Assembly (NCBI GenBank): GCA_944383245.1
Contig: CALWOU010000004.1
Location: 888 to 64,887 of the forward strand
Reading direction: 5' to 3'
Origin: an uncultured Clostridia bacterium
GTDB taxonomy: Bacteria; Bacillota; Clostridia; Christensenellales; UBA1242
DNA: 64,000 nt
Numbering within the stretch: position 1 is the first letter of the stretch; every line of letters starts with the position of its first letter. The notes below the pieces were generated by a model, which was not told where the DNA came from, made no database searches, and saw nothing but the letters and a program-made list of their open reading frames with translations. The position numbers were made by a program, and so were the translations under genes. This document shows, piece by piece, positions 895-10,783 of the stretch.

Positions 895-2496
895 TTATTT
901 TTTTATCATTTCAATAATATTCAATGGTTTTGCAATAATTGTTGTACCATCTGGAGTTTTGCCAGTAGCAAAAACTGTATTCCAAAATTCATAATTATTT
1001 TTACCGCCAAATACAGTCGCGGACATAGAACGATCTCTCCAAATTGGCATATTTTTTAGATTAATAACAAAAGTTCTTATATTATCCCATAAAGTATCTG
1101 AAAATTTTTGTTGAAGCAAATTATCTTTATCATACATGACACCAGAATAAGCAAAATGATTATTTATTAGCAGTTCTATATATTTCAACCAGTTATACAT
1201 AATTTCTTCTTTGAACAATCTATACGCAATAAGATGGTCATCTGGAATTGAATCGCCCTTTCCTGCAACAATACTATTTTCTATTCTATATGTACCAATA
1301 TTATCATCATATTTATCAATTAAAATTTCTTCAGCTAAAATATTACATAAATGAATTGCTTGTTCTCTTTCAAGCATTCTAGGATTCAATCCTTCATCTA
1401 ATTTATAATCCATTGGAGTTGTTAATATTGTCTTCGCATTTATAAATCTTGATAAAAATGTTTTTTCAAAAGTACTATAAGATAAAGGCAATTCATTTCC
1501 TCTACCTTCAAAATTAATATATGATTGCAATTTATTTTCATTTGTTCTTGTTATTGTATTTTTTTGGCTATTTATAATGTATAATTTTACATTACCTTTT
1601 TCACCTTTAAAATAATCAACCAATTTTTGTTCAGAAAAGGATAAATCATCTTCATTAAGGTTATTTTCTTCTCTATATCTTTGAATTCTACTAGCATATA
1701 ATTAATCATGTAATTGCCTTACTATTGCCTTATCAAAAGCTATTTGTTTCAGTTGTTTTCCCGCATTCAAATTTGTAGTCATTAATTTATCAAAATCTGA
1801 ATCAATAAATAAACGTACAACAATTTTTGTTACTCCCAACATAATTTGCGCAACTGTTTTATGTTGTCCATCAAAAATTTTAATTTTGTTATCATCAATT
1901 CTTGCTAAACTTATCTGCAGTTGTGGATTAGGTTTATAAAATTCTTTTATTAGTAAATTAACAGATTTATTTAATCCTCTTGGATTTAAATCATCGTCAT
2001 GATACAAATATTCAAGAGGAACTTCAATAAATGCAGTTTTTTCTCCAGATAAAACATCTTTATAAATGGTAGACTTCTTTATTTCTACATCCCCTATTTC
2101 GTCAAAAGAATATAATAAATCATTATTTTTGATCTTACACTTAAAATCATATTTAGATCCATTGAATACTTTTAAAACGTGTTTTAAAGATGCAGTCTCG
2201 CCATTATTTTCTGCTTCCTGTATTATTTTTTCAAGCTTGAGTATTTTTTTTGCGACAATTAAGTCGGCATCCTGTTTCGTTTTGTTGCAATGTTCATGTG
2301 TAATAGCAAAATTCATCAATTCGTCTTTACCATTATTGGCTAATGGTTTTATATGGTCAATATTTGTATTATTTAAATCTATATCAATCTCTTGCTCGCA
2401 AATAAAGCATTTATGATTTTGAATATCCCACAATTTTCGACTTAATTTATCATATTCTTTTTTATTTAATGAATCTAAATATTTCGAATTACCCAT
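895..2496 (-). pseudogene. HNH endonuclease + ParB/Srx-like (DGQH) domain protein interrupted by a single in-frame TAA
   Basis: ORFs 1702-2496 and 895-1623 are in one frame (1602 bp total); the linker reads HD*LYASRIQRYREENNLNEDDLSFSEQKLVDYF; N-terminal CxxC...DHIKP...HEHCN HNH motif; central NPR...IFDGQHK motif. Confidence 0.8.
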
Positions 2497-2515: not shown

Positions 2516-3088
2516 TTAATGCATTGTTATATTTATTAAATTTAATGTTTTTAATCTATAGCGTAAAGCGGATTCTGATACTCCATAGCGTTCTATTAAA
2601 TATTTACAAATGGTAGCCCATATTTTATAATTGCTTTTAGTTATACAAAATGGGGTGGTACATGAGCCTTTGTTTAAACGATATAACATGCTTGTTACTG
2701 CTCGGATTACTTTTTCTTCAGGCATAAGTAAACAAGTTGCAAAATAATCTGCCTCATATTCTATAGGGTCTTTATTTGAACATTCTTCGTTTATGGCAGT
2801 ATCTACATGCGATTTTAGTTGATGACCTAAAAAATAATGTCCAAGTTCGTGTGCTATTGTGAAATTTTTCCTGCCAACATTATCCATATTTGAATTTATT
2901 ATAATATATTTTTGCTCATTTGTTGCTTTTGTAAAAACTCCAGCAAATTTATATGGATTAGATTTAATTTCTCTATATTTTATATTTTCACTTTCACATA
3001 TTTTATTAAATTGTTTATGTGCACCGCCTCTTGAAACATATTTATTTAATATTTCATTTGCCAATTTTTCAATTTCACTTCTTGTCAT
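2516..3088 (-). CDS. ImmA/IrrE-family Zn metallopeptidase
   Basis: RKNFTIAHELGH (HExxH) and EYEADYFATCLLMP motifs, C-terminal VSESALRYRL HTH; ATG at 3088 overlaps the hsdS stop (ORF track extends to 3106). Confidence 0.9.
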   Translation of the reverse strand: MTRSEIEKLANEILNKYVSRGGAHKQFNKICESENIKYREIKSNPYKFAGVFTKATNEQKYIIINSNMDNVGRKNFTIAHELGHYFLGHQLKSHVDTAINEECSNKDPIEYEADYFATCLLMPEEKVIRAVTSMLYRLNKGSCTTPFCITKSNYKIWATICKYLIERYGVSESALRYRLKTLNLINITMH

Positions 3089-4520
3089 CTTCATCCATCG
3101 CATCATATATTTGTTTTAAAATTTCTTCATCAGCATTACCGCGGAGAGCATATCCTTGCATTTGTTTCCATTGATTAAATCCATCAAGATAAGGTATTGT
3201 AATAACTTGTTTACTTTCGCTATCCAATTTCTCGTTTTCCTCTTTAAATGTCACTTGTCCGTTCATAAGAAGCGGTAACAAGAAATCACGCAAAGAAGAT
3301 AATTCTTGATTTTCTTTTCTATTTTTATTCAACTTTTCTATTAAACCAGTAACTAAATTGGCATATTTTATCAAAATATCATCACTTGGTTCAATTATAG
3401 GAAATAAATTCAAATCTTCCTCATTTATTCCTTCTTGTGTAGAGCCACCTGAACGATAATCCTTTAATTTTTCAAAGTATTTTGAAGATATAAAGCCTAC
3501 AATATAAGGAAAAGAATTTTCACCACATTGCAACCCCATAAAACCAGTTGAAATAACATATTTATCTATCATCCAATTATCACTCTTTGAGATAAAAATA
3601 TGCTTTATACTGTTTTTCATCTTTGCAAACCATACAGAATTTAATGTTGATTGCATATTTGCTCGTCCTTCTCTATTCTCATAATCTACTACATTTCCAT
3701 CAATAATATCATTACCAATTACATTTGCGGTAGCCAAATAGATTTTTTTTGAAAAATACTCTACACCTTGTTTTATAATTGAGAATAATCTTGAATTTTT
3801 TAATGTTTTTACTTCCCAGCCTTCGGGAATTTCTCGTTTTAATTGCTCATTATAAACCATTTTGCCACCTGATGATTTATAAGGTCTGCCTTCTTCGTTT
3901 GGAAATTCAAATTGCAAAAACCAATAATCGTAAATTATCTTTGCTAATGCTTCAAGTTTTTCATTATTTTTTTTGTTTATTTCAATTTTTTTATCAATAG
4001 GTTTCAAAATTGATACAATTTTTTCTTGGATATCTTTTGGATAATCTATGACTAATGTATTACGAATCGCTTCCATTGTAATATTTGGCTGTGCAGAACC
4101 CTGTTTACTTTGAAATAAATAACTTTGCCCTATCGGGCTTTGTAAATAATATTTTAAATATTCTAAATCAAAATAATCATCTATTAATTCTATTTTTGCA
4201 ATATTGCTAGCTAAATGACAATCATAAGGATGATAAAAAATGCCAACCTCACCTAAATTGCTCCCAACATAAGGAACTAATATACATCTCTTTGTTAGTT
4301 TACTTCTAATTAAATGATCTGAAATTTCTTTTTTTATGTACCAATCATATTGTTCTACAAAATTACCATCTCTAATGTTTTTGCCTTGAACTAATGGTAT
4401 ATCGCTATCATTTCTTTTATTAACTGTTTGATTATGTTGTATATATTCAGAATGTTCAAACCCTGCAAGTTTAGTAACAAAAACATGAAGACCTAATAAT
4501 TCATATTTAATATTACTCAT
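3075..4520 (-). CDS. hsdS: Type I R-M specificity subunit with an extra 55-aa C-terminal tail
   Basis: Two TRDs with conserved spacers (GSAQPNI...IDKKIEINKK...IPEGW; LRDFLLPLLMNGQV); overlaps hsdM stop. Confidence 0.93.
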   Translation of the reverse strand: MSNIKYELLGLHVFVTKLAGFEHSEYIQHNQTVNKRNDSDIPLVQGKNIRDGNFVEQYDWYIKKEISDHLIRSKLTKRCILVPYVGSNLGEVGIFYHPYDCHLASNIAKIELIDDYFDLEYLKYYLQSPIGQSYLFQSKQGSAQPNITMEAIRNTLVIDYPKDIQEKIVSILKPIDKKIEINKKNNEKLEALAKIIYDYWFLQFEFPNEEGRPYKSSGGKMVYNEQLKREIPEGWEVKTLKNSRLFSIIKQGVEYFSKKIYLATANVIGNDIIDGNVVDYENREGRANMQSTLNSVWFAKMKNSIKHIFISKSDNWMIDKYVISTGFMGLQCGENSFPYIVGFISSKYFEKLKDYRSGGSTQEGINEEDLNLFPIIEPSDDILIKYANLVTGLIEKLNKNRKENQELSSLRDFLLPLLMNGQVTFKEENEKLDSESKQVITIPYLDGFNQWKQMQGYALRGNADEEILKQIYDAMDEDDKK

Positions 4521-6132
4521 ACTTCAACTCCTTAAGACTGCTTTTTATCTCATCTTCAAGAGTTTTGCCTTCAGCGAACAACTTTTCTAAACTAGTTGTA
4601 TATTCTTGTATTTTTTTATTAAACTCTTCTTCAGTGATATCAATATACTCAATTTTAACATCAAAGTATTGTCCTGCAGACAATGAATATCTTTCTTTCA
4701 ATTTATCATAAGAAACAACAACTGAAAACTCATCTTTTGCTTCTTCATTGATAAAAGTATTCACAATTAAATCTATTTCATCATCTGTTAATCTTTTCTT
4801 TTTAAGTCCATCTTCTTGATAATCTTCGCCTAATTTTGATGCGTCAATCAAAACAACATTTTCATGATTTCTTGCGTTATCAAAGAATAATACTGAAACA
4901 TTAGTCCCTGTATTTGCAAATACATTTGATGGCATGCTAATACAGCCATAAACAATTTTATCATCTATAATTTTATGCAATATATTTTTTTCAACACCAG
5001 AAGATGCTGTTATAAAACCAGTTGGGACAACAATAGCACCTTTACCTGTATTCGGCTTTAAAGAATTGATAACATGTTGAATAAAGCAGGTGTAAATTGC
5101 CATGCTAGATTTCTTTTTAGCAGGCACTTTTGGTACACCTGCCCAAAATCTTACAGGCATTGCTGCAATTTTTTCTCGTGTATCTGAGAAATCCATTTTA
5201 AATGGCGGATTTGACACAACAAAATCAAATTGTTTTAAAGATTGTCCATCATCACTTTTATGATACGGATTTGTTAAGGTATCACCTTGTATTGCATGGT
5301 CTAGTGAAGAGATGAGTCCATTAAGAATCAGATTTAATTTTAGCATTTTATTGCTTCGCTGTGAAATATCTTGCGAAAAAATAGTACATTTATCTTCTCC
5401 AATTTGATGAGCAAGTGCCATCAATAATGTTCCCGTTCCAGCTGATGGGTCATAACATTCTATATTATGAAATTCTTTCTGCTTACCAACTAAAAGCCTA
5501 GCCATAATTGTAGCAATTGAATGTGGAGTATAATATTCTGCATATTTACCGCCACCTGCTGTGTTGTAATCTTTTATTAAATATTCAAAAATTGCCGCAA
5601 AAAAGTCATAGTGTTGTGAAAACGCATCTTCAAACGAAAAGTTTACCAATTTATCAACTAATGCTCTAGCAAATGATGCTCGTTGTGATGCATCTGTCAC
5701 ATAATTTGTTAATGGCTCAAACAATGCTATACTTGTATTTTCAGTAGTATGAGTGGCGAATATATCTGCATTCTTCTCAGCAATATCAACCATTGTTCTA
5801 TCAAATATTAATTCAAAATCACCTTTTGCTTGCTGATTCCACAAAAATGAAATCAAATGTTGCGGTTGTAACCTAGGAACATCAACCATTGAATCAAGTA
5901 ATTTGTTTCTTTCTTCTTCTGATAATTCACTGTAAGCAATTTCCCATTTGTCTGCTTTTGCTATTTTAGAATTTAATTTCTTTATCTCATATCCAAATTT
6001 ATCGTTTAAAAATTTATACAAAAACACTTGTGTTATAATTTTATATTCATTACCATCGTTTCCCAATCCATAGGTTTGACAAGTTGCTTTTAAATCATCA
6101 ATCAACTTTATTGTATTTTCTTTTATATCCAT
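4513..6132 (-). CDS. hsdM: Type I R-M N6-adenine methyltransferase
   Basis: EYYTPHSI, YDPSAGTGTLL (motif I), VSNPPF (motif IV). Confidence 0.96.
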   Translation of the reverse strand: MDIKENTIKLIDDLKATCQTYGLGNDGNEYKIITQVFLYKFLNDKFGYEIKKLNSKIAKADKWEIAYSELSEEERNKLLDSMVDVPRLQPQHLISFLWNQQAKGDFELIFDRTMVDIAEKNADIFATHTTENTSIALFEPLTNYVTDASQRASFARALVDKLVNFSFEDAFSQHYDFFAAIFEYLIKDYNTAGGGKYAEYYTPHSIATIMARLLVGKQKEFHNIECYDPSAGTGTLLMALAHQIGEDKCTIFSQDISQRSNKMLKLNLILNGLISSLDHAIQGDTLTNPYHKSDDGQSLKQFDFVVSNPPFKMDFSDTREKIAAMPVRFWAGVPKVPAKKKSSMAIYTCFIQHVINSLKPNTGKGAIVVPTGFITASSGVEKNILHKIIDDKIVYGCISMPSNVFANTGTNVSVLFFDNARNHENVVLIDASKLGEDYQEDGLKKKRLTDDEIDLIVNTFINEEAKDEFSVVVSYDKLKERYSLSAGQYFDVKIEYIDITEEEFNKKIQEYTTSLEKLFAEGKTLEDEIKSSLKELKYE

Positions 6133-6148: not shown

Positions 6149-9100
6149 TTATGCTACCATATATGTCGCATGGTATTGGTCTAAATATTGTTTTGCAACT
6201 CTTTGTAAAATAAAAATTCTATCATTTCTATTGTTTTCGATATGCATTTCGTCTAGTCCGAGAGTAACTTGAGCCAAAACTGTCTTTTCAAAATAGGCGT
6301 CTTGTTTCAATATATCATTTCTGTCATACACTTTTTGATCTACGACTTTCTTTATATTTGATAGAACATCAAATATAGTCTCATCATATTCTGAGATAAT
6401 TATTTGACCTCCACTAACTTTGCGCCTTTCATTTTCTTCTTTAATTCTTTTATGAACTCTCGCGAATTTAGCATCGCCATTATATTTCTTTGCTAATATT
6501 TTATTTTTCTTTTGCAATTCATTTAACTTATCTAAAATTTCATTTAATGCTTTTGATTGTTCATTAAAATGAGCAATGCTATCAATAACAAATCCTCGCT
6601 CCTTAAATCTTTGGAAAAATGCTTCCCTTAAAGTAATATATTCAGGGTCATCCTGATCTAAATTATCAACAAAGCCGCCAATAACTTTCTTCCATAAATC
6701 ATTTAATTCTTCCTTTTGACTTGTCGCAATACGAAGTTCTTCTTCTCCAATCTTATTAAAGTTAAAAGTTATATCTTGCATAGCCTCATTAACTATTTGT
6801 TGAGTTGTATCATCATTAAATATTTCTTTTTGATTAATATAATTTATATGATTTTGAACTTCAGCCAGCATTGGAGTTAAATTTGCAATATTTAAATGGC
6901 TAAAAGCTTCTTTCAAGTCATCATCACCAAATGTTCTAACAATATTTATACAATCTCTTGCTGAAATCAAAACTTTTTTAAGTTTTAGTAATTCATCTTT
7001 ATCTTCTATAGTTGATATCTCAGAACTAAATTCTTCTAAATTGTCTATTGTATAATTAAATAATACCTGTCTTACATCTTTCATCTGCTTAATTAGAGCA
7101 TCTTTATCTTCTATAATTTGATTAAATGTGTCGGTGACATTATCTTTACCAACTTCTTCTGGATCATTGAACCTGTTCAATTCCATCAAATAGGCTTGAT
7201 TTGTTTCATCAAAGTTCTTTTTTATGTCGGCAAAATCAACAACATAACCATATCTATTGTCTTTATATGGACGATTCACACGAGTTAGTGCTTGTAGTAA
7301 ATTGTGATCTTTTAATTTTCTTCCTAGATACATTCTTTTTAATCTTGGAGCATCAAATCCAGTCAACAACATATTATAAACAATAAGAATGTCTATTGTC
7401 ATATTTTTCTTAAAGTCTGTAATAATTTGTTTTCTTGTTTCTTTATCATCGCTATCAAATAGTACTATTCCTGCTTTAAAATCGCTTTGCAGTGATGGTG
7501 ATTGCAAATTTAACTCTTGCTGAATTTCATCAAAATAAGCAAATAATTTTCTAGCCTGCTCACTTGTCTCACATACAATCATACCACCAAGTGTATCATC
7601 ACCGCGAATTATACGGAATTTTTTCAAGTCAGTTATTATATATCTCAACAGTTCTTTAACATAATTATCATGTTCTATTATTTGGTTTCTTCTAACATCC
7701 TTCTTTTGTACAAGTGTTTCAAGCCGTTCATATATTTGTGATAACTTTTCTCTGTATGAAGTTTCAATATCTTCACGAATGAGTTTTAAAGTATAACCAT
7801 CTTGAATTGATTTATCGTAATAGTATGTATGATAATATTCGCCAAACACTTTCCAAGATGCTCTTTCTTCTTTTAGTAATGGTGTTCCTGTTAATGCAAT
7901 TTTAATAGAATCTTTATCAGCATCAAAAAGATTAGCAAGAAAGGTCCCTTTGGGATTGTAACCTCTATGAGCTTCATCTATTATAAAAATGCGTTGCAAA
8001 TTGGTTGCATAAGATGGAATATTAACTTTTTCTGTATCCTCTTCAAATTTTTGAATATTTACAACAGTAATTTCATCTCTGCCGCTTGTACTTTCCTGTG
8101 CCTGTTGAGTTCTAAATTGTTCCATCAACTCCGTTCTTGTATTTGCAGTTTTAACAACAAGACCTCTTGCTTCAAATTCTTGCGATGCTTGTTCAAGCAA
8201 ATCTAATCTATCAACAATGAAATAGAATTTTGCAACTTTATTTTGTTTAGCAAAATAATCTTTTAAAACATTCGTTAAATGATATGACAATGCTGTTTTA
8301 CCACTTCCTTGTGTGTGCCATATAACACCTGAACACATACCATTATTAATTTTATCACGAACAATCATTGATGCAAAAAATTGTTGATATCGCATAATAT
8401 GTTTCTCGTCTGTAGATTCTAAAACTCCATCAACCTCGCGTTCCATTTTAACATAAGCGATACCATATTTAATTAAAAACAAAAATCTTTCAGGAGAACA
8501 CATTGAAGTAATAATTCTATTTGTCGGTGTGTTTATATTAAGATTAGTTTGATATTCTATTGAATGGTGTATAACTTGGCAATTATAATCAGTTAAAATT
8601 TTCTCTTCTAAATTTTTATCAATATCAAGATAATTAAAATTTTTGATAAATGGTGCTACACTATCATTTAATTTGTTTTCCTCACGAAAACAATTGAATT
8701 TAGCTTCTTTTCTTGCTGTCGTACAATAAAAAGCACCTTGGATAGGAACTATTCCACCTTCGGCATCATATTCCATATTATTCGAAAATATCATTAATTG
8801 GGTTATATTTAAAAATCTTCTAAATTTTCTATTAGGGAACCTTAAATCATTCATTCGCTTACTTTCAGTTAACATTCCACCATTATTATTAGGCTTTTTT
8901 ACTTCTATAAAACATAGTGGCAATCCGTTCACAAAAAGTGTAATATCTGGGCGAAATTCTTCCTGATCTCTTTTGCAAGTAAATTCGCCGGTAAAATGAA
9001 ACACATTATTCTTTGGATTGTCAAAATCTACTAATTTATATGGCGACAAGGATACCAATTTTTTATAAAAACTTTTTCCCAAATCATCATAATCTAATTC

Positions 9101-9322
9101 AGTAACTATATCATGCAAAACTTGATCTGCCTTACCTGCATTGTTTGGATTTAATTTTGCAAATTGATTTTTAAAAACATCAATTAAAATATTAGTATTT
9201 TGCTCATAAATACTACCAGTATCTTCTTCATGAATTTTCCCAAAATATTTATATCCAATTCTTGTCAAATGAACCATAGCGGGGATTTGAACACGCGTGG
9301 CTTCATTAAATTTTACTTCCAT
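6149..9322 (-). CDS. hsdR: Type I R-M restriction subunit
   Basis: RPDITLFVNGLPLCFIEVKK nuclease motif, HTQGSGKT Walker A, IDEAHR, TGTP, MLLTGFDAP, QALTRVNR helicase motifs. Confidence 0.96.
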   Translation of the reverse strand: MEVKFNEATRVQIPAMVHLTRIGYKYFGKIHEEDTGSIYEQNTNILIDVFKNQFAKLNPNNAGKADQVLHDIVTELDYDDLGKSFYKKLVSLSPYKLVDFDNPKNNVFHFTGEFTCKRDQEEFRPDITLFVNGLPLCFIEVKKPNNNGGMLTESKRMNDLRFPNRKFRRFLNITQLMIFSNNMEYDAEGGIVPIQGAFYCTTARKEAKFNCFREENKLNDSVAPFIKNFNYLDIDKNLEEKILTDYNCQVIHHSIEYQTNLNINTPTNRIITSMCSPERFLFLIKYGIAYVKMEREVDGVLESTDEKHIMRYQQFFASMIVRDKINNGMCSGVIWHTQGSGKTALSYHLTNVLKDYFAKQNKVAKFYFIVDRLDLLEQASQEFEARGLVVKTANTRTELMEQFRTQQAQESTSGRDEITVVNIQKFEEDTEKVNIPSYATNLQRIFIIDEAHRGYNPKGTFLANLFDADKDSIKIALTGTPLLKEERASWKVFGEYYHTYYYDKSIQDGYTLKLIREDIETSYREKLSQIYERLETLVQKKDVRRNQIIEHDNYVKELLRYIITDLKKFRIIRGDDTLGGMIVCETSEQARKLFAYFDEIQQELNLQSPSLQSDFKAGIVLFDSDDKETRKQIITDFKKNMTIDILIVYNMLLTGFDAPRLKRMYLGRKLKDHNLLQALTRVNRPYKDNRYGYVVDFADIKKNFDETNQAYLMELNRFNDPEEVGKDNVTDTFNQIIEDKDALIKQMKDVRQVLFNYTIDNLEEFSSEISTIEDKDELLKLKKVLISARDCINIVRTFGDDDLKEAFSHLNIANLTPMLAEVQNHINYINQKEIFNDDTTQQIVNEAMQDITFNFNKIGEEELRIATSQKEELNDLWKKVIGGFVDNLDQDDPEYITLREAFFQRFKERGFVIDSIAHFNEQSKALNEILDKLNELQKKNKILAKKYNGDAKFARVHKRIKEENERRKVSGGQIIISEYDETIFDVLSNIKKVVDQKVYDRNDILKQDAYFEKTVLAQVTLGLDEMHIENNRNDRIFILQRVAKQYLDQYHATYMVA

Positions 9323-10150: not shown

Positions 10151-10783
10151 ATGAGAGAAGTAAAAAAGAAAAAAGGAATTTTAGATGATAACACAGTTAT
10201 CACCTTAGAAAACATTGAAAAGTTATCTCAATGTTTCGCACAATCTGCACTCAAAAGCATTAAGAAATATGCTTATAGTGCAACACCAAAAGTCGAAAGA
10301 TTGCAAAGTCTATTAAGGCAAGATATTTGCTATCACAAAAAATTAGATACTTATTCAGATGCATATGATTTAGTCCAAGAAGCAAGTTTGTTTCTATGCA
10401 AATTCATAGGACACAGACTTGGCGAACTTTGCAAAGATTCCAAATCAAAATCTGGAAAGATAGATAATCTCAAAAATGCTTGCCTTAGAGTTTTGCAAGT
10501 ATATCTACGAAAAGAATTAAAGTTTTCAAACAACACAGTAGACGAAAACGAATGCTTTGAAGTTATAGATGAAAGACCTATCATTCAAGATAAGCCTGAC
10601 TACACGAAAGTTAAAGAAGTGTTATCTAAAATCATACAAAACAGGTTCGAATACCAAATATTTGAATACTATTACAACGGAGTTGAGCCAAAACTAATAG
10701 CAGAATTTTTAGGAATTAGTGTAGATAAAGTTTACAAACGAAGAAGAAAATTCAAAGATAGATATGCAATGCTTTATATGTAA
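10151..10783 (+). CDS. Sigma-70/ECF-like regulator of the element
   Basis: AAGGAG RBS; region-2-like DAYDLVQEASLFL; C-terminal region-4 HTH (YYNGVEPKLIAEFLGISVDKVYKRR). Confidence 0.7.
   Translation: MREVKKKKGILDDNTVITLENIEKLSQCFAQSALKSIKKYAYSATPKVERLQSLLRQDICYHKKLDTYSDAYDLVQEASLFLCKFIGHRLGELCKDSKSKSGKIDNLKNACLRVLQVYLRKELKFSNNTVDENECFEVIDERPIIQDKPDYTKVKEVLSKIIQNRFEYQIFEYYYNGVEPKLIAEFLGISVDKVYKRRRKFKDRYAMLYM

Follow-up and report, generated by a model that had tools for sequence, protein, structure and literature searches.

A candidate protease and recognition-tag module on restriction enzymes: a tailed HsdS subunit and its overlapping M78 peptidase gene

We analysed a stretch of 64,000 nucleotides (the window) from an uncultured Clostridia bacterium of the UBA1242 lineage (assembly GCA_944383245.1, contig CALWOU010000004.1, positions 888 to 64,887 of the forward strand), and within it a type I restriction-modification (R-M) system whose specificity subunit, HsdS, carries a C-terminal tail and is followed by the gene of an ImmA/IrrE/CapP-type zinc peptidase of family M78. 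The system belongs to a small integrative island that encodes a serine recombinase. Its three genes are all intact and form one operon on the minus strand, and relatives have the same gene order. hsdR (6149–9322) encodes a restriction subunit of 1057 amino acids with the Pfam domains HSDR_N, SWI2_SNF2, ResIII and a T1R_D3-like region; hsdM (4513–6132) encodes an N6-adenine methyltransferase subunit of 539 amino acids (N6_Mtase, E 1e-59); and hsdS (3075–4520) encodes a protein of 481 amino acids, tail included, that matches Methylase_S. The PADLOC model Specificity_I covers residues 30–430 of HsdS (E 3e-81). The body of the protein (3243–4520) consists of two target-recognition domains with the central and C-terminal conserved regions; it ends in LLPLLMNGQVTFK, and the AlphaFold2 prediction places long helices at residues 162–202 and 380–420.

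The peptidase gene, on the same strand, runs from 2516 to 3088 (the longest open reading frame (ORF) starts at 3106), encodes 190 residues and matches Pfam PF06114. The stop codon of hsdS (TGA, 3077–3075) lies downstream of the peptidase start codon (ATG, 3088–3086), giving an overlap of 14 nucleotides (3075–3088) that we read as translational coupling, by which both proteins would be made together. An earlier note on this DNA, made from the letters alone, had described this overlap with an HExxH peptidase, and had also described an HsdS extension of 55 residues beyond the usual end of the family (residues 427–481, 3242–3078). Both observations are borne out, and the extension reads as quoted there. 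The further statement that the element contains no XRE gene holds at the level of Pfam HTH_3, for which there is no match in the island, the nearest on the contig being at about 49.9 kb of the window. The peptidase is the only M78 peptidase encoded in the 1.17-Mb genome. No RNA evidence for the locus was found, as the sole sequencing runs that hold it are DNA metagenomes from chicken gut.

Between the HsdS body and the tail module is an acidic disordered linker (residues 421–441, 3198–3260), predicted by AlphaFold2 without secondary structure and with a predicted local distance difference test (pLDDT) score of only 31–36; its length and sequence differ among relatives. The linker is followed by a first helix (residues 442–456, PYLDGFNQWKQMQGY, 3153–3197), in which F448 is conserved and W451 is invariant, and by a second, proposed docking helix (residues 465–480, EEILKQIYDAMDEDDK, 3081–3128), predicted as helical at 465–474 and 477–480, which is the most conserved part of the tail (FDAMDDEDK). 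A low-confidence break separates the two helices and holds the sequence A458-L459-R460-G461 (3138–3149), which is the proposed scissile site. The cut would fall between L459 and R460, that is between 3144 and 3143, where the earlier note had correctly placed this junction. A DNA-binding domain of the ribbon-helix-helix type (strand-helix-G-helix) was considered for the tail and rejected, since no family matched and the AlphaFold2 model consists of a disordered linker and two helices, without paired strands.

More than 8000 proteins share the central conserved region of this HsdS. Of 130 members that were sampled, 16 are tailed, and 102 contain the LLPxLMNGQ motif but are tail-less, most of these stopping 4–12 residues past the motif. 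It is therefore clear that the extension is real. Searching with only the tail as query recovered 14 HsdS clusters that differ in their target-recognition domains and have a common tail at 58–68% identity. A profile built from 22 tails was then scored against 1.84 billion representative proteins and matched only 64 clusters, always at the C-terminus or within four residues of it, except for one weak 51-residue match. The strong matches all read x-A-A-R-G (LAARG 26, IAARG 6, YAARG 6, VAARG 4), and the A, R and G of this core are invariant across about 60 clusters. A-L-R-G is restricted to the window and one sister cluster, A-A-R-G being found elsewhere; the conserved x-R-G core that the earlier note had suggested looking for is thus present, as an invariant A-(A/L)-R-G. 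All synonymous codon families are in use for the core (GCA, GCT, GCC and GCG for alanine; CGT, CGC, CGA, AGA and AGG for arginine). We therefore conclude that selection acts here on the protein, and not on RNA or on the start of an overlapping gene. Of the 1757 ORFs in the host genome, none but HsdS has this C-terminal motif.

We note that a different C-terminal extension is also found on HsdS proteins of the same family. It is 21–32 residues long past NGQV, has the form LGMVAEP..(E/D)YK(T)K, and was seen in P0021, P0025, P0045, P0050, P0053, P0058, P0098 and P0103, mostly from Flavobacteria-like sources. In one locus (L015, 4590–6008) an extension of this type precedes the A-A-R-G tail.

The tail and the peptidase occur together with great regularity. 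Seven tailed HsdS proteins were looked up in 11 loci (L001–L011), and all are followed by an M78 peptidase of 191–192 residues with a 14-nucleotide overlap. When metagenome contigs were scanned using only the tail, 14 loci were recovered, and the peptidase gene overlaps the stop codon in all 13 that have room downstream; in more distant tailed loci, the overlaps between hsdS and the peptidase gene are of 8–11 nucleotides. By comparison, the four tail-less HsdS proteins of the same family used as controls (six loci with the gene order hsdR-hsdM-hsdS) have no peptidase. The co-occurrence with a downstream ImmA/IrrE gene that the earlier note had predicted is therefore found in 21 of 21 tailed loci with readable downstream DNA, against 0 of 4 tail-less proteins (Fisher p about 8e-5, by hand arithmetic, the peptidase not being the query). 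The reverse search, in which the peptidase was the query against contigs from one genome per species, gave a consistent picture: of the 18 relatives closest to the peptidase (29–71% identity), 17 follow an HsdS-like protein of 460–507 residues that ends in AARG and a helix.

Overall, peptidase relatives of 33–71% identity were found after tailed restriction proteins in at least six bacterial lineages. The hosts of the 17 close relatives are Clostridia, Bacteroidota, Flavobacterium, Spirochaetales, Lentimicrobiaceae, Opitutales, Peptococcaceae, Emergencia, Pseudobacteroides, Schaedlerella and Anaerocolumna, and cultured carriers include Flavobacterium adhaerens, Pseudobacteroides cellulosolvens, Emergencia timonensis and Anaerocolumna jejuensis. 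Several kinds of protein carry the tail. Besides the type I family of the window there is another, whose HsdR is of the EcoEI_R_C type and in which the flanks of the tail differ and A-A-R-G is kept; further HsdS types are found in L101, L104 and L107. The tail also occurs on an HsdM-HsdS fusion of at least 1033 residues (L100, 1–3102) and on a type III Res subunit (L098, 1–3141; PADLOC REase_III, E 2e-170), in both cases with an overlapping peptidase gene. The module is thus not specific to HsdS. In one Peptococcaceae locus (L023, 4502–5986) a single in-frame stop codon divides the tailed hsdS into a piece of 400 residues and a tail-bearing piece of 95 residues; either the gene is a pseudogene or the tail is naturally a protein of its own here.

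Across 13 loci, tail identity follows peptidase identity closely (Mantel r 0.92; partial r 0.85 given HsdM), and does not follow HsdM identity (partial r −0.19). Two comparisons with the window illustrate this: L017 has 72% identity in HsdM, 42% in the tail and 50% in the peptidase, while L003 has 49% in HsdM, 84% in the tail and 72% in the peptidase. The genes on the 3′ side of the peptidase vary, and comprise an HNH nuclease, a 516-residue protein of unknown kind, AAA_21 ATPases, RES and deaminase genes, or none on that strand. Similar cargo is also found after tail-less hsdS genes, and a conserved third gene in the module is therefore ruled out. The conserved unit consists of the tailed restriction gene and the peptidase gene.

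The peptidase is a clear member of family M78 (COG2856). The match to Peptidase_M78 (PF06114) scores 73.3 bits against a cut-off of 22 and covers profile positions 1–123. The HELGH sequence (H80-E81-x-x-H84) lies at 2851–2837, and H80, E81, H84, E110 and E112 are invariant in 30 relatives, as expected for the zinc site of M78 peptidases; E110, which aligns with the glutamate of IEAQAD in CapP, is probably the third zinc ligand. The best PADLOC model is capP, matched over positions 3–123 of 242 only, and the sole sequence match in the Protein Data Bank (PDB) is CapP (7t5t). The AlphaFold2 model has a pLDDT of 90.3, and its best Foldseek match is again CapP (7t5t, E 3e-6), followed by IrrE/PprI (3dti and 8sln, both E 4e-6), with a template modelling score of 0.55 normalised to the query, which places it in the M78 fold, comprising the peptidase and the small helical (HTH-like) domain.

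The earlier note had proposed DNA damage or single-stranded DNA (ssDNA) as the trigger of the system, and this is not supported. In CapP and IrrE, the groove for ssDNA lies between the peptidase and GAF domains (10.64898/2026.05.16.725639). The peptidase of the window has no GAF domain: it has only 190 residues, and targets of 240–290 residues are covered only in their first parts. Half of the groove is therefore missing, and it cannot exist in the form seen in CapP and IrrE; judged from the domain content, ssDNA sensing of the CapP kind is unlikely here. Most relatives of the peptidase have S-F-x-C-S-D, of the general form φ-φ-C-(S/D/N), at the position of the CapP cysteine switch, about 13 residues past HExxH. 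The subclade of the window has a deletion of three residues at this position, and an invariant N-E-E-C seven residues later.

The tail and peptidase can be compared with several known systems. In Deinococcus, IrrE/PprI, which has the M78 fold, cuts the C-terminal domain of DdrO at L/R-G, and the site in the window reads A-L-R-G. That pair differs in that DdrO, an XRE repressor, controls a DNA-damage regulon, that IrrE has HTH (helix-turn-helix) and GAF domains and binds ssDNA, and that no link to restriction enzymes is known. Closer in size is ImmA of ICEBs1 and phi105, an anti-repressor M78 peptidase of about 170–190 residues which also lacks a GAF domain, is encoded on a mobile element, and has its substrate gene overlapping or adjacent. 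The ImmA-ImmR pairs of Bacillus ICEBs1 and phage phi105 are also cited in 10.64898/2026.05.16.725639. Their substrate is the XRE immunity repressor of the element, with excision and transfer as the output, whereas the island described here has no XRE gene.

The closest comparison is with CapP and CapH. The cut in CapH falls between F82 and R83, inside a C-terminal domain of 41 residues and two helices that serves as its oligomerisation domain, and the substitution R83A blocks the cut (10.1101/2022.04.27.489752). In the predicted complex of the two proteins, helix 1 of this domain unwinds and presents the site, and helix 2 lies on a hydrophobic face of CapP (10.64898/2026.05.16.725639). The likeness extends to the partner gene directly upstream, the two-helix C-terminus (predicted for the tail, where a cut before the arginine and docking of the second helix are proposed), the location in phage-defence loci, and the cysteine-switch motif, which most relatives of the peptidase retain; CapP is moreover the best match of the peptidase by PADLOC, PDB sequence and Foldseek. 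The comparison that the earlier note had drawn with DdrO (L/R) and CapH (F82/R83) is apt, as is the docking of the following helix on the peptidase. There are also clear differences. The peptidase is GAF-less and has 190 residues against about 280 in CapP, and the subclade of the window has no cysteine at the CapP position; the P2-P1 residues are F-F in CapH and A-A in the tails (A-L in the window); and the partner is a restriction subunit rather than an HTH repressor, so that the output cannot be transcriptional de-repression.

More distant relatives of the peptidase have XRE or HTH_17 proteins as partners, and the C-termini of these partners have a layout of two hydrophobic residues and an arginine, a short spacer, and an amphipathic helix with an acidic cap. 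Examples are LFRN..L.KEDQDIL, AYRNKKELSERDKKLL, IAARSSNGEISDHDYEII, VLFRNLKGLNKEDQDILMNVY, ATAYRNKKELSERDKKLLDDL and QIAARSSNGEISDHDYEIIKK. The tailed restriction subunits show this layout, with a predicted two-helix module and a candidate hydrophobic/arginine site, encoded next to the peptidase, and the adjacency is strict; HsdS itself is a Methylase_S protein without an HTH domain, and does not have the N-terminal part of an XRE substrate. A PDB search with an XRE partner returned only HTH domains, and no C-terminal domain of CapH or DdrO with which to align.

The weak matches to the tail profile are stand-alone proteins of 40–110 residues that keep F..W and TLR(E/D)IFDAMDDEDK but not A-A-R-G. 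Two are in viral contigs of IMG/VR and one is among small phage-like genes, with no peptidase or restriction gene near them, and neither the tail nor a mimic of it was found in cultured phages and plasmids. These viral proteins may be uncleavable decoys or mimics of the tail. Stand-alone proteins of 54–150 residues with a copy of the tail at their end (F..W..QG, then LRDIFDAMDDEDK) were seen in the viral or phage-like contigs L141 (1962–2414), L142 (3950–4114) and L140 (976–1161); in place of A-A-R-G they have, for example, GVEASD or GVQGVKVRE.

On this evidence, we consider it probable that the hsdS tail and the overlapping peptidase gene form a two-part module, consisting of a protease and its own recognition and cleavage tag on a restriction subunit. 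We are rather more confident that the tail is the cognate partner of the peptidase, and slightly favour a cut before the arginine. The linker of about 20 residues would be floppy and hold out the helix-break-helix unit; the peptidase would dock on the second helix (EILKQIYDAMDEDD) and cut in the break before the invariant arginine, at A-L/R-G in the window and at A-A/R-G in relatives, removing the last 22 or so residues and so changing the state of the restriction complex.

What the cut would do to the enzyme is a more speculative matter. Proteolysis is known to down-regulate a type I enzyme in EcoKI, where the host ClpXP acts on HsdR; this alleviation depends on ClpXP only, no dedicated protease or tag being known. 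In LexA, cleavage unmasks a degron for ClpXP. Likewise, a site-specific cut in RseA-type anti-sigma factors exposes x-A-A and hands them to ClpXP (10.1101/491043). The restriction-linked tails always have A-A before the arginine, where the repressor-type partners have F, Y or L, so that a cut would leave x-A-A. The new C-terminus, (Y/L/V/I/M)-A-A, would be of the same kind as that of the host ssrA tag and of cleaved RseA (VAA), and ClpXP would then destroy the clipped subunit (HsdS, Res or M-S), resulting in less restriction, that is, a self-encoded restriction alleviation. The host has a transfer-messenger RNA (tmRNA) tag of ANNNKLAYAA (contig C23, outside the window), with clpP and clpX together on contig C34, and the tmRNA tags that could be read in 11 other tail-carrying genomes all end in x-A-A. 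We also compared the residue before the A-A of each tail with the tmRNA tag of its own host and found no systematic match, the likeness being to the general x-A-A class only. The degron step is wholly inferential and is put forward as a hypothesis, and although alleviation by way of an unmasked degron is the consequence that we favour, we regard it as doubtful. The scheme in its fullest form would be a portable protease-addressed tag on type I HsdS, M-S fusions and type III Res, in which the A-A/R-G cut unmasks an ssrA-like end, ClpXP removes the subunit, the module acts as a self-encoded switch for alleviation (or arming), and phages respond by making uncleavable tail copies to block the peptidase; as a whole this is a little more doubtful again.

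Several points weigh against the proposal of a protease with its own cleavage tag. Cleavage of the tail by the peptidase, here and in relatives, is proposed from sequences and predicted structures. The tail-less control sample is small, at four proteins, and stays small because the HsdM family is too sparse: a search of 300 genomes of the phylum with HsdM found, at E 1e-60, only the genome of the window itself. The co-divergence of tail and peptidase could reflect nothing but the contiguity of their genes. An hhalign comparison of the tails with the C-termini of the XRE-type partners gave a probability of 6% (P 0.006), which is not significant, and we therefore claim a shared layout or design, and not common descent. 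In the window, a cut in A-L-R-G would leave YAL, a poor match to x-A-A, and the degron step therefore fits the relatives better. In the absence of both a GAF domain and a cysteine at the CapP position in the subclade of the window, neither trigger nor latency can be inferred. Finally, if the viral proteins are decoys, the peptidase would favour defence and not alleviation.

This last point leads to an alternative with the same substrate and the opposite outcome. Here the tail would hold the enzyme inactive, or competent only for methylation, by self-association or masking, and clipping would switch restriction on, for example on entry into a new host or in response to a phage cue. The tail is found on the subunits that govern restriction in three enzyme architectures, the domain of CapH that it resembles serves in oligomerisation (10.1101/2022.04.27.489752), and delayed restriction would help the establishment of an island that has a serine recombinase; the viral proteins with both helices and without A-A-R-G would then look like phage decoys against a pro-defence protease. 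However, such mimics are few (three contexts) and none was found in cultured phages, nothing indicates that the tail inhibits the enzyme, and AlphaFold2 leaves it undocked on the HsdS body. The invariant A-A at P2-P1 in restriction-linked tails, as against F, Y or L in the repressor-type partners, would also be left unexplained, and we regard this alternative as unlikely.

A docking partner need not be a substrate, and strict linkage and co-divergence are equally expected if the tail only docks the peptidase, as a pseudo-substrate or in an antitoxin-like hold. The peptidase would then have its true target elsewhere, for instance in a repressor or in an anti-restriction protein of a phage, or, in a variant of this explanation, the protease would be released as an abortive-infection effector once the complex is disturbed. 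M78 peptidases have been classed with toxin-antitoxin modules (matches of the RmrA and spr1629 type), and toxic cargo is often found on the 3′ side of the peptidase gene (HNH, RES, deaminase, AAA_21 ATPases); but this cargo varies, is found after tail-less hsdS genes too, and in at least 9 of 31 loci is either missing or encoded on the other strand. A docking tag would need only the helix, whereas the tails have an invariant arginine preceded by small residues exactly at the position of the cut in CapH and DdrO, and no other ORF of the genome contains the motif. Docking alone is decidedly unlikely in our view. It might also be supposed that the tail is what remains of the 3′ end of a partner gene that was lost, joined to hsdS by a chance fusion, or is kept only for its overlap with the start and ribosome-binding site of the peptidase gene, given that the last 8–14 nucleotides of the tail overlap this gene and that its acidic end (DEDDKK) covers the likely ribosome-binding site. 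The A-A-R-G core, however, lies 60–70 nucleotides upstream of the overlap and is preserved although all its synonymous codons are in use, and the tail itself persists in several phyla and on at least five types of carrier, always at the C-terminus and always with an intact peptidase. Such a relic or by-product is disfavoured by these comparisons and appears very improbable.

Full-text searches of the literature returned no description of a restriction subunit that has such a tail and is paired with an M78 peptidase. The novelty would lie in an M78 peptidase-substrate pair in which, as the sequences suggest, the substrate module has moved from repressors onto restriction enzymes. Self-restriction becomes a hazard once DNA has been damaged, while a system establishes itself in a new cell, and when specificity changes. 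To our knowledge, the means by which restriction systems avoid killing their own cell are well understood only for a few systems of E. coli and for type II systems controlled by C proteins. If the proposal of a protease with its own tag is correct, it adds a self-contained, post-translational layer of control, in which a protease acts on a recognition tag fused to a restriction enzyme, and which has spread horizontally across phyla and enzyme classes; the range of substrates of the ImmA/IrrE/CapP peptidases would be widened from repressors to enzymes. As a small and portable pair, the tail and its protease could also find use in engineered protein control.

The neighbouring genes are described here for completeness. 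In the window, the variable cargo on the 3′ side of the peptidase is an HNH nuclease gene of 533 codons (895–2496, minus strand), interrupted by one internal TAA at 1702–1704; the corresponding gene is uninterrupted in L001, L009 and L012, at 94–100% identity. Upstream of hsdR and divergent from it is an ORF of 210 residues (10151–10783, plus strand; also L001, 1713–2345, and L011, 45–677), the C-terminus of which resembles sigma-70 region 4 or an HTH (LIAEFLGISVDKVYKRRRKF). The copy in the window has no Pfam match, and a relative in L009 has a faint match to Sigma70_r4_2; the protein may be a regulator of the operon. In the closest relatives a DUF4238 gene recurs on the opposite strand, just past the peptidase or its cargo (L003, 10064–11077; L005, 7014–8033; L007, 7753–8778; L011, 9748–10761).

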